64,000 nt of DNA, from positions 28,504-92,503 of the IMG/VR virus record IMGVR_UViG_3300007712_000002; one strand, 5' to 3'. Under the pieces are notes generated by a model. It had not been told where the DNA came from. It did no database searches and was given only the letters and a program-made list of their open reading frames with translations. The first letter of the stretch is position 1; every line of letters begins with the position of its first letter. Source of the DNA: a virus. Positions 3 through 50,638 of this stretch are shown piece after piece. Position numbers and translations under genes: made by a program.

Positions 3-455
3 TGGTATAACAAAGTCAAGGACAACTTATCAAATATTGTCCCTGCAATCAGTTATTATGAAAAAGAGCTAGAGGAAGCCCGCAAGGAAACATTCTTGTC
101 GGGTAACCTCGAAGCGAACAGCAAACGTATACCAGGTGATGTAGCTTATCGCTTTGCTCAGTTACAAGAGGTTGATGCTATCTTGGAATATCTCAACATC
201 GAACTTCGCAAGATACATCGTGAGAAGTATCGCAAATATCTTGAGCACTATAACAAAGCACTCAGCAGCCGTGATGCTGACAAGTTTGCGGAAGGCGACC
301 AGGACTACATTGACATGGAGCACTTGGTCAATGAGTTTGCACTCGTCCGCAACAAATATCTAGCCATCATGAAGGGACTGGATAACAAAAGCTTCCAAAT
401 TAACAATATCACCAAGCTTCGCACGGCGGGCATGGAAGATATCAGTCTAGATTGA
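3..455 (+). CDS. uvsY: Recombination mediator UvsY-like protein (5' end probably outside window)
   Basis: Frame is open from nt 3; YxxYLEHYNKALSSRDADKF...KGLDNKSFQINNITKLRTAGMED is typical of T4-like UvsY. Confidence 0.8.
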   Translation, partial: WYNKVKDNLSNIVPAISYYEKELEEARKETFLSGNLEANSKRIPGDVAYRFAQLQEVDAILEYLNIELRKIHREKYRKYLEHYNKALSSRDADKFAEGDQDYIDMEHLVNEFALVRNKYLAIMKGLDNKSFQINNITKLRTAGMEDISLD

Positions 456-7324: not shown

Positions 7325-7547
7325 GTATTTGTTCCTTCCAATAAAAGCAATTGCGTCAGATAGCAGAATCGATTCAGATCAAGACCAAGTCATGATTTTA
7401 TTATCTGATTACACTTATTGGGGCCATCCAAAAATTAATAAGGCTTTGGAAAAATGGTGTGATGAATATGGCGCCGTCCTGGATGGATTGACATTGGTTT
7501 TTCCTGATGATGAAACATTTTTGTTATTTAAGATGACATGGGTATGA
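7308..7547 (+). CDS. Hypothetical protein (F-x-D/E...F-K-M family)
   Basis: ORF; C-terminal FPDDETFLLFKMTW. Confidence 0.6.
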   Translation: MSKQPKYLFLPIKAIASDSRIDSDQDQVMILLSDYTYWGHPKINKALEKWCDEYGAVLDGLTLVFPDDETFLLFKMTWV

Positions 7548-48300: not shown

Positions 48301-48516
48301 CACATGCTCACTGAGGCGGCCGCACTGACAACCTAGTTGGAGTGAGGACAAGCTCAGGACAGGCCCAGAACCTGTGGGAGGCTATCGCCGCTCGTACCAC
48401 TGATACCGCAAGGGGGCTTGCAACGGAAACAGGTCGAGGTAAGTTCTATCCTGTGAGACCGGGTTCCGGCCAATAGACGAATGGTCGCCCTTGACAGAAT
48501 CCTGGCTATTATGTGA
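48301..48516 (+). ncRNA. rnpB: Compact RNase P RNA (about 215 nt)
   Basis: GAGGACAAGCUCAGGA / ACAGAAUCCUGGCUA form P4 with the bulged U; P2 GGCGGCC/GGUCGCC; UAGACGAAUG; P1 closes the ends. Confidence 0.85.
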
Positions 48517-48608
48517 GTTAGATAAATACAAGGTAATTGGAGAATAAAACATGCTAAAAGATATTTGGGTATAAACTACCAGTATTCATATTGCAACTAA
48601 AAAACTTC

Positions 48609-48662
48609 TTGACAACTGATGTCAAGCCATATATAGTGTCGAGTAAGAGTTGTGCATAAATA
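48609..48662 (+). promoter_or_regulatory. Sigma70 promoter plus late TAAATA promoter for the Cys leader
   Basis: TTGACA-17-TATAGT; CATAAATAC. Confidence 0.75.
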
Positions 48663-48683
48663 CCAGCACAACAGGAGAACGAA

Positions 48684-48818
48684 ATGACTTTTGAAGGATA
48701 TAGAGATGGAATTGTTCGTGGCGATGGCGGCACTGCTACTGTGTGCCCATGCGGTGAAAACTGTCAGTGCAGCCCATGCACTTGCGGTGGCAATTCCTGT
48801 GAAGGTTGGGGCGGCTAG
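48684..48818 (+). CDS. Cys-rich 44-aa peptide (candidate leader; metallothionein-like)
   Basis: AGGAG RBS; MTFEGYRDGIVRGDGGTATVCPCGENCQCSPCTCGGNSCEGWGG*. Confidence 0.75.
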   Translation: MTFEGYRDGIVRGDGGTATVCPCGENCQCSPCTCGGNSCEGWGG

Positions 48819-48881
48819 ACAATAGCTCAACCTTAAAGGATACAAGCCCCGCCTAGTGTGGGGCTTTATCATTTGAATTAT

Positions 48882-48963
48882 GTTGCGGGGCCCGGACGGG
48901 AAGGGGCCGGATTGCAAATCCGAGGCACGAAAGTAGCGAGTTCGACTCTCGCCCGCAACTCCA
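48882..48963 (+). tRNA. tRNA-Cys(GCA), extended variable region
   Basis: GTTGCGG/CCGCAAC-T-CCA; loop TTGCAAA. Confidence 0.8.
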
Positions 48964-48969
48964 AAAAAT

Positions 48970-49043
48970 GTGCTCGTGGCGGAAAGGCGACGCGCCGGAC
49001 TGCAACTCCGGTCATGCAGGTTCGAGTCCTGCCGAGCACTCCA
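48970..49043 (+). tRNA. tRNA-Cys(GCA)
   Basis: Canonical cloverleaf with CCA. Confidence 0.92.
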
Positions 49044-49200
49044 ATATATCCTATTACTATGCGGTTGTCCTCGTGGGGACCCCTTAAAACGAGAGTAAAG
49101 CTGAGCCTCAGCCGGTAGTCGCAATATAGGACAGTGTCATTAGACGTGAGATGGCACACCAACGATTGACAATATTGTGTTCACATGTTAAATTGAAAAT

Positions 49201-49509
49201 ATGAGCTATTTTCGTGATTTAAAAGTCTACAAATTGTTCCCCGAACTCAGGGCTACAATTAGACAAACATACATTGCAAAGTTGGCTGGGTTGTTGACTT
49301 TGCTTTTGTTTTCGCCACTCATAGCGATTGGTGTCATATCCATTGGTCTTGTCCATCTATTTGATTTGGTTGGGCAATACTCACTCTGGCCAGCACACAA
49401 GATAACCAACTGGCTTCATGACTATCAGCGTGATCAGATACGCTCAGCCCATTCTGTCGTCCCCATTGACAAAATCCAAGAGAGATTGGGAGATCAAGAT
49501 GACGACTAA
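49201..49509 (+). CDS. Membrane protein
   Basis: TM segment. Confidence 0.55.
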   Translation: MSYFRDLKVYKLFPELRATIRQTYIAKLAGLLTLLLFSPLIAIGVISIGLVHLFDLVGQYSLWPAHKITNWLHDYQRDQIRSAHSVVPIDKIQERLGDQDDD

Positions 49510-50638
49510 CATCAAATACTTTGACCGGTATTATGTTGGTCAACGGAACCAGGATACTGCCAGTGGCAAACCGTTGGCTTTTGCTGTTCCTGACGGTGAC
49601 GATGCCGCAGCAAAAAAACGCAAGGCAACAGTTGATGCCTGGGTCGCAGGATATTGGTCAGCACGAGACACTCGCGGTCGCCTCCGCAAAGACCTCAAAG
49701 AGATGGGCGAGGTTTACGATAATAAACCCATGACAGGTTTCCGCCTCACTGACTGGAGTGACCGTTACATCACTGACAACAAGGTAGTTCGTGTGCTTGA
49801 CCCAAGAGGATTCGAGCTTGAGATCTACATTCCCAACCTCATGGACATCATCCTTAACTCGGAAGTTGACCACGGCGAAATCAAGGATGAGCTGGTATGG
49901 CTGCGCGAAGGCAGCAACAATCGTCTGGTGCGCACATCAGATCCTGCTTTTGCTGAGGCTAAACAAAATATGGTTCGGGCTGCAAAGAAGAAAGCTGCAC
50001 CCAAGAAAAGTCACGAAGTTGGAGATATCATTTCCAACACCTGGGGCACATTCCTCTACATGGGACTCATGGACGTAGAGTTCGTTGTGCCTCGTGGCAA
50101 GCGCGTGGTTGACGACGAGATGACTCGTCAGTTCGGCACGCGCCGAGTTGGTGGTTTCTTTGGCTTTCCAGGTAACGGACCCATTCGTGAAGAAGTTTAC
50201 CAGACCTACTATCGAATCGACGATGACCGCCTTGAAAGCGTGAGCATTGGCCGCCGCCATGTTTACCAAGATGTTAATAGAGGTTGGAATGGGCATGTGG
50301 CAAGGGATACCATCACGTTCCGCAAGAGCAAGATGGCGACGCAACAAGTAGTGAGCTCTAATAACCTGCTACCTCCTGTAGGTGAGGAAAGTTATTATCA
50401 CGTTGACTATGAAGTGTTCATGTATTACGACGAGGATGGCCGGCTTTACACACAGAAAGAGCATTATGATCTGGAAGAAGATCTTAACAAGAACATACAG
50501 CGTCCGAATGAGCACAAATATCTTGAAGGCATACGCCAATGGAAGACCTGTGTCGTTCGGGTCAACGATGGACCACTTGAAACTGATCCAGTAAAAGGTC
50601 GCTTCCGTGAAGAACTGATTAGGGGTCAATATCATTGA
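49499..50638 (+). CDS. Hypothetical protein
   Basis: Long ORF; DN.P..GF...DPRGFELEI motif. Confidence 0.75.
   Translation: MTTNIKYFDRYYVGQRNQDTASGKPLAFAVPDGDDAAAKKRKATVDAWVAGYWSARDTRGRLRKDLKEMGEVYDNKPMTGFRLTDWSDRYITDNKVVRVLDPRGFELEIYIPNLMDIILNSEVDHGEIKDELVWLREGSNNRLVRTSDPAFAEAKQNMVRAAKKKAAPKKSHEVGDIISNTWGTFLYMGLMDVEFVVPRGKRVVDDEMTRQFGTRRVGGFFGFPGNGPIREEVYQTYYRIDDDRLESVSIGRRHVYQDVNRGWNGHVARDTITFRKSKMATQQVVSSNNLLPPVGEESYYHVDYEVFMYYDEDGRLYTQKEHYDLEEDLNKNIQRPNEHKYLEGIRQWKTCVVRVNDGPLETDPVKGRFREELIRGQYH

Follow-up and report, generated by a model that had tools for sequence, protein, structure and literature searches.

In Escherichia coli the protein gene secG is co-transcribed with the downstream tRNA gene leuU, and the two are split by RNase P (PMC2241853). 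Short open reading frames rich in a single amino acid have been described in another setting. Such frames lie upstream of genes handling that amino acid in the trpL and hisL attenuators, and the polycysteine leaderless short ORFs of mycobacteria are Cys-responsive (bioRxiv 10.1101/834739). Among non-canonical cysteine tRNAs the nearest described one is selC* tRNA-Cys (PMC5389517, Mukai et al.). The major determinants for CysRS are the anticodon GCA and the discriminator U73 (PMC9976931).

Here we analyse a phage locus in which a short Cys-rich ORF is followed by two genes for tRNA-Cys. It resembles secG-leuU in having a small protein gene and then a tRNA gene, for which we propose a shared transcript and a split by RNase P; it differs in that the phage protein is extremely rich in the very amino acid that its tRNA carries and in that a strong hairpin lies directly between the two genes. 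With trpL, hisL and the polycysteine short ORFs the locus shares the one-amino-acid-rich frame and its position. Unlike these systems, however, it showed no mutually exclusive RNA structure, its peptide is conserved in sequence beyond the codon count, its Cys codons are spaced and not consecutive, and the downstream genes are tRNA genes, not biosynthetic ones.

Layout of the module and RNA structure

The stretch of DNA that was analysed, called the window here, comprises 64,000 nucleotides and belongs to a 92.5-kb IMG/VR virus record. The completeness of this record is estimated at 25%, and the window's phage, a soil phage, is therefore a giant phage. Nearly all of its genes are carried by the plus strand and the GC content is about 44%. 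With ARAGORN and Rfam, over 30 tRNA genes were detected within the window, besides a two-piece tmRNA. The main tRNA array lies about 3 kb downstream of the module of Cys-rich ORF and tRNA-Cys. For comparison we used a distant relative, IMG/VR 3300028423_000861 (G001), which was reached via a 406-aa protein that is encoded close to the module and whose two versions are 43% identical. The records of both phages are fragmentary.

In both phages the module is followed on its 3' side by a 102-aa membrane-type ORF and then by the gene of the 406-aa protein (window 49201-50638; L122, 5707-7149). The N-terminal domain of this protein is widespread in phages, with 219 cultured phage records, and PHROGs lists the protein as function unknown. 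Its AlphaFold2 model is confident (pLDDT 80), yet neither a Pfam family nor a PDB fold matched. Neither the region nor the peptide nor the tRNA yielded a relative among cultured phages. Upstream of the module, the entire stretch 48301-48600 of the window is without counterpart in G001; a 7-codon mini-ORF (MLKDIWV, 48552-48575) with a GGAGA ribosome-binding site is located there, ahead of the module's promoter.

The features of the module are collected in Table 1. The Cys-rich ORF of 44 aa, the two hairpins and the two tRNA-Cys genes that had been named in a preliminary description of this DNA are all present where it had placed them.

Table 1. Coordinates of the module's features (positions in the window)
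Feature	Position	Strand	Remarks
Sigma-70-like promoter	48609..48637	+	TTGACA-17-TATAGT; 11/12 consensus positions match
Shine-Dalgarno sequence	48673..48678	+	AGGAGA, 5 nt 5' of ATG
44-codon gene, Cys-rich metallothionein-like peptide	48684..48818	+	7 Cys; core VCPCGENCQCSPCTCG; tail EGWGG
Hairpin 1, across TAG stop codon	48802..48834	+	48802-48810 pairs with 48826-48834
Hairpin 2, strong stem-loop	48844..48866	+	9 pairs; weak U tail 3' of it
tRNA-Cys(GCA) #1, long variable region	48882..48963	+	Rfam; ARAGORN at lowered threshold
tRNA-Cys(GCA) #2, canonical, U73, encoded CCA	48970..49043	+	ARAGORN; Rfam 61 bits

At the same relative place as the promoter, G001 carries TTGACA-17-CATCAT. The Shine-Dalgarno stretch CAACAGGAGA is identical in both phages. 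A perfect 7+7 palindrome (CTTGACA-ACTGA-TGTCAAG, 48608-48626) overlaps the -35 box and could be a candidate operator; it is absent from G001. No promoter match was found between 48637 and 49166. Behind the module, the spacer 49044-49165 folds no better than shuffled sequences (z = -0.6). A 12-nt inverted repeat on either side of the module was also considered and set aside, being at chance level by our own estimate.

Hairpin 1 has a predicted energy of -16.7 kcal/mol (z = -2.5), and its counterpart in G001 is weaker with 5 bp only. Hairpin 2 (-15.4 kcal/mol, z = -3.2) is followed by the interrupted U tail TATCATTT, which is the weak tail noticed in the preliminary description. Hairpin 2 likely acts as a leaky terminator, stabilises the 3' end of the mRNA in front of the tRNA, or does both. 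At its position G001 has a hairpin of 10 bp and of unrelated sequence, which lacks a U tail, is not called as a terminator and is not complementary to the 5' end of the tRNA. Hairpin and tRNA are 15 nt apart in the window and 4 nt apart in G001.

The complementarity that had suggested a regulatory switch is real, the segment GCCCCGC (48846-48852) being the reverse complement of GCGGGGC (48885-48891) in the 5' part of tRNA-Cys #1. The predicted folding, however, does not make use of it. The minimum-energy fold from the ORF end through tRNA-Cys #1 contains both hairpins and the cloverleaf (-68.8 kcal/mol), and forced pairing of 48846-48852 costs 11 kcal/mol with the tRNA 5' end and 9-11 kcal/mol with the ORF end. 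Hairpin 2 stays intact with a free ORF end and equally with the ORF end masked, as it would be by a terminating ribosome. Moreover, the competing tRNA segment is situated downstream of the terminator and is transcribed later, so that it cannot prevent termination. A mutually exclusive terminator and anti-terminator set by the position of the ribosome, as in an attenuator, was not found, nor is an intrinsic terminator conserved between the relatives, the U tail being weak in the window and lacking in G001. As judged from the two sequences, the conserved feature between ORF and tRNA is a stable hairpin and not a terminator/anti-terminator pair.

The cysteine-rich peptide

The Cys residues of the 44-aa ORF are located at positions 21, 23, 27, 29, 32, 34, and 39. 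The window has 311 ATG-ORFs with a length of 30-100 aa, and no other one reaches both 6 Cys and a Cys share of 12%; in the larger ORFs of the phage the mean Cys content is 0.83%. Records of the identical peptide and of an R7K variant come from several assemblies, and G001 encodes a homologue of 38 aa at the same place. Three further homologues of 44 aa, all metagenomic, were obtained by an exhaustive HMMER search (P0036) and by a profile search (P0037, P0038).

Comparison of the window with G001 codon by codon gave pS 0.74 and pN 0.26 (dN/dS about 0.11), and different codons are used at 10 of the 22 identical residues, including 5 of the 6 shared Cys. In the alignment of six sequences M1, C21, P22, C23, G24, E25, C27, C29, C34, E40, G43, and G44 are invariant. 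The conserved core of the family reads CPCGExCxC..C.C and the C-terminal tail E-x-[WY]-G-G is kept in all six peptides. The number of Cys ranges from 5 to 7 per member, and one homologue has lost a Cys. The alignment thus shows sequence and spacing to be conserved, non-Cys residues included, and not merely the number of Cys. The preliminary description had named exactly this comparison as the one that would tell a protein from a leader, and its outcome speaks for a protein. In an attenuator the regulatory codons would be kept while the peptide drifts; here the low dN/dS and the invariance of P22, G24, E25, E40, G43, and G44 point the other way. On this evidence, together with the homologues and the identical Shine-Dalgarno stretch, the 44-codon ORF is a real gene under purifying selection.

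Additional conservation at the nucleotide level was considered for the ORF tail GAAGGTTGGGGCGG, in which 3 of 4 wobble sites are kept compared with 7 of 16 elsewhere. By our own binomial estimate (p about 0.2) this is not evidence for a constraint at the RNA level.

Searches with the Cys motif itself returned mostly unrelated sequences. A loose DNA pattern of the Cys spacing, applied across viral contigs, matched almost exclusively repeats of TGC/TGT. Two real-looking small Cys-rich ORFs, similar in appearance, were seen in other viral contigs (L016, ~30-86, minus strand; L044, ~7391-7447, minus strand; such as ..VCPCCGGCKCHTCSCPGGPCGP..), and these were not recovered as homologues by the HMMER searches. 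The exact pattern CPCGENCQC has zero matches in viral contigs, one match in metagenomes, which stems from the same phage (L126), and two in genomes, both in unrelated bacterial proteins whose neighbouring genes are not metal-related. One of the two is encoded on a Singulisphaera plasmid and has a signal or anchor sequence (L127, 5150-5542, minus strand), the other a Pseudomonadaceae membrane protein (L128, 2183-2629, plus strand); in both the motif is followed by a His-rich tail. The looser pattern CPCGExCxC is common in unrelated proteins of phages and bacteria, and only one true homologue was recovered with it.

As to the nature of the peptide, the sole family signal is Pfam PF02068 (Metallothio_PEC, plant Ec/PEC), with 24.7 bits and E = 3e-5, which is under the gathering score of 31.8; the same profile matches only two of the six family members at E <= 1. 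NCBIfam and PHROGs gave nothing for the peptide. Among solved structures, 2KAK, a domain of wheat Ec-1, matches best, with E = 0.3 across the Cys core GTATVCPCGENCQCSPCTCGGN, and three low-scoring metallothionein families are found among the Atlas leads. AlphaFold2 gave a disordered and uninformative model (pLDDT 45), disorder being expected for an apo-thiolate peptide.

In size and Cys content the peptide corresponds to metallothioneins in general, with 44 aa and 7 Cys (16%) in the arrangement C-x-C-x3-C-x-C-x2-C-x-C-x4-C; of these Cys, the first four and C34 are shared by all family members. The spacing C-x-C-x3-C-x-C-x2-C-x-C followed by G is that of the plant Ec/PEC (type 4) metallothioneins, and the surrounding G-E-x motif is likewise shared with the beta-E domain of wheat Ec-1 (CGCGEHCGCNPCACG vs CPCGENCQCSPCTCG). 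Both the phage peptide and plant Ec metallothionein are small and have no predicted fold when metal-free. On the other hand, the Pfam score is below threshold, the phage peptides have 5-7 Cys only and the His ligands of Ec-1 are absent. Metallothioneins have few or no aromatic residues, whereas the phage peptide contains F3, Y6, and W42, and the aromatic residue of the tail (W or Y) is kept in 6/6 peptides. Foreign to metallothioneins are also the conserved N-terminal EGYRD and the C-terminal EG[WY]GG, and the origin of the peptide is viral. We consequently call the peptide metallothionein-like and do not assign it to a metallothionein family; metal binding via cysteine thiolates is likely, a role in metal buffering conjectural. 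In the searchable literature no papers on a phage metallothionein were found.

The long-arm tRNA-Cys

tRNA-Cys #1 scores 38.6 bits with Rfam RF00005 in a focused scan (gathering score 29), but was overlooked by ARAGORN at default settings and by the wide Rfam scan at the gathering threshold. It has the anticodon GCA, G8, U73, an encoded CCA and a variable region of 12 nt consisting of a 2-bp stem and a GAAA loop. ARAGORN folds it as 8/4 and Rfam as 7/5, with an anticodon stem of 4-5 bp. Both tRNAs of the module carry the marks of cysteine identity, namely GCA, U73, and encoded CCA, and both exceed the Rfam gathering score (38.6 and 61 bits vs 29). A further tRNA-Cys(GCA) of 88 nt is called by ARAGORN at 54377-54464. 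It has a variable arm of 7 bp, its acceptor and anticodon stems contain several mismatches, and it is not among the Rfam hits at the gathering threshold; the statement that there are only two tRNA-Cys genes accordingly holds for the well-supported ones. A gene for CysRS is absent from both phage fragments.

In G001 the long-arm tRNA-Cys stands alone behind the peptide gene, and the canonical tRNA-Cys is situated 14 kb away in the main array. The long-arm tRNAs of the two phages are 90% identical, compared with 79% for the canonical pair. They differ in the variable arm, in one base of the D loop and in the compensated pair 28-42, which is C-G in the window and U-A in G001.

We scanned the IMG/VR contigs for the pattern of an anticodon arm that a long gap separates from the T loop downstream. 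Matches were found in 97 contigs, 93 of which yield a tRNA-Cys(GCA) of 81-90 nt (64 distinct sequences; loci L178-L273). The variable regions of this class measure 12-21 nt and mostly form a stem of 2-6 bp with a GAAA, GCAA, or GUAA loop, and the stems covary. A UCCA end is present in 58 of the 64 distinct sequences and position 8 is U in 44, the latter favouring an ordinary 7/5 fold. The long-arm gene is the sole tRNA-Cys seen in 86 of 96 loci and thus has the appearance of a normal decoding tRNA in phage arrays. Except in G001, the 450 nt upstream of the gene contain no Cys-rich ORF in any of the approximately 93 class contigs, so that the tRNA class is independent of the peptide.

Outside these contigs, blastn against cultured phages gave no match, and the long-arm pattern was not found in 401 bacterial genomes of one phylum, which is weak evidence given the expected density. 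A description of a long-arm phage tRNA-Cys was not found in the searchable literature. Like selC*, tRNA-Cys #1 has U73, the GCA anticodon and a long variable region, and an 8/4 acceptor/T fold can be drawn. In contrast to selC*, the phage class mostly has U8, is compatible with the 7/5 fold and shows neither a lengthened anticodon stem nor a Sec-like D arm; in its variable arm a GNRA-type loop caps a short stem, and no neighbouring cysS* was found.

Possible roles of the module

We consider it somewhat better than an even chance that the module is a small transcription unit, composed of a metallothionein-like peptide gene and tRNA-Cys, and not a switch. A promoter of the sigma-70 type would drive a well-translated gene of 44 codons, whose product would be a small cysteine-thiolate peptide, probably metal-binding. 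Transcription would run on through one or two stem-loops into the long-arm tRNA-Cys and, in the window's phage only, into a second, canonical tRNA-Cys on the same transcript. A cut by RNase P at the 5' end of the tRNA would separate the message from the tRNA and would leave the mRNA with a protective hairpin at its 3' end. In the window's phage hairpin 2 may also act as a leaky terminator and thereby set the ratio of mRNA to tRNA. By co-expression the supply of tRNA-Cys would be raised whenever the Cys-dense message is made.

The order of peptide gene, hairpin and long-arm tRNA-Cys is kept in the distant relative. From the promoterless stretch, the short distance between hairpin 2 and the tRNA and the precedent of secG-leuU we infer co-transcription and processing by RNase P, and we presume that the peptide binds metal and that a Cys-dense message expressed alongside extra tRNA-Cys is of benefit. 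The preliminary description had offered, as one of its two explanations, a phage metallothionein co-expressed with the tRNAs it needs. What is supported of this proposal is a real gene under purifying selection with the Cys pattern of plant metallothioneins and a promoterless gap to the tRNAs; the family assignment is not, with Pfam remaining sub-threshold, and metal binding and a need for these tRNAs are presumed.

An alternative to which we give a clearly smaller but still appreciable chance is that the peptide acts as a small zinc-knuckle protein which serves neither metal buffering nor tRNA-Cys but, for example, binds a host or phage protein, and that its position reflects inherited gene order only. 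Since CPCGExCxC is widespread in unrelated phage and bacterial proteins with neighbourhoods that are not visibly metal-related, the motif could be a structural zinc knuckle, but of all known families it is the metallothionein domains that fit the Cys pattern best. As regards the position, the linkage of peptide and tRNA-Cys is documented in two phages with a common gene order (RNase H-like gene, 200-aa gene, module, membrane ORF and 406-aa gene) and may thus be inherited synteny; in more distant phages that possess the RNase H-like neighbour gene the module was not found. Against mere inheritance of gene order stands the chance of about 1 in 20 that one isolated tRNA beside one Cys-rich ORF is a tRNA-Cys.

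Peptide and long-arm tRNA-Cys could also be a dedicated functional pair beyond co-expression, the tRNA serving, e.g., as Cys donor for a modification of the ..EG[WY]GG tail or as specialised decoder of the Cys-dense message. It is the long-arm tRNA-Cys alone that stays beside the peptide in both phages; this tRNA is the better conserved of the two, with differences confined to the variable arm and three point positions, and the E-x-aromatic-G-G terminus is found in every one of the six peptides. However, a candidate for the modifying enzyme was not found, the conserved 406-aa neighbour being without Pfam or structural match, and neither fragment encodes CysRS. The long-arm class, moreover, mostly occurs as the sole tRNA-Cys of ordinary arrays in which the peptide is absent, which points to plain decoding, and we think a dedicated pair improbable. 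Quite improbable, in our estimate, is the broader proposal in which a distinct Cys-tRNA is supplied in cis for the Cys-dense message, or modifies the GG tail, and in which the long-arm tRNA-Cys is, separately, an undescribed phage-wide class-II-like tRNA.

The other explanation of the preliminary description, a Cys-sensing leader in which stalling at the seven Cys codons under scarcity of Cys-tRNA shifts the RNA folding and with it read-through into or processing of tRNA-Cys, has the short Cys-dense ORF, the hairpin with a partial U tail, tRNA-Cys as the only isolated tRNAs after the ORF and the Cys-responsive short ORFs of mycobacteria (bioRxiv 10.1101/834739) in its favour, but is very improbable given that hairpin 2 forms regardless of the ORF end, that the relative's hairpin differs, that the competing tRNA segment is made after the terminator, that the peptide is conserved in sequence and Cys spacing and that about 93 other long-arm tRNA-Cys genes of phages have no Cys-rich ORF upstream.

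This negative result removes one of three supports for a wider proposal, according to which the phage gates tRNA genes by amino-acid-matched leader peptides. The small transcription unit that we favour would neatly illustrate how a message very rich in one amino acid is produced along with the matching tRNA. The long-arm tRNA-Cys, as a common phage form with covarying GNRA-capped arms, may be of more interest to tRNA biologists than the module itself. Should the peptide bind metal, a metallothionein-like protein would have to be counted among the gene products of giant soil phages.
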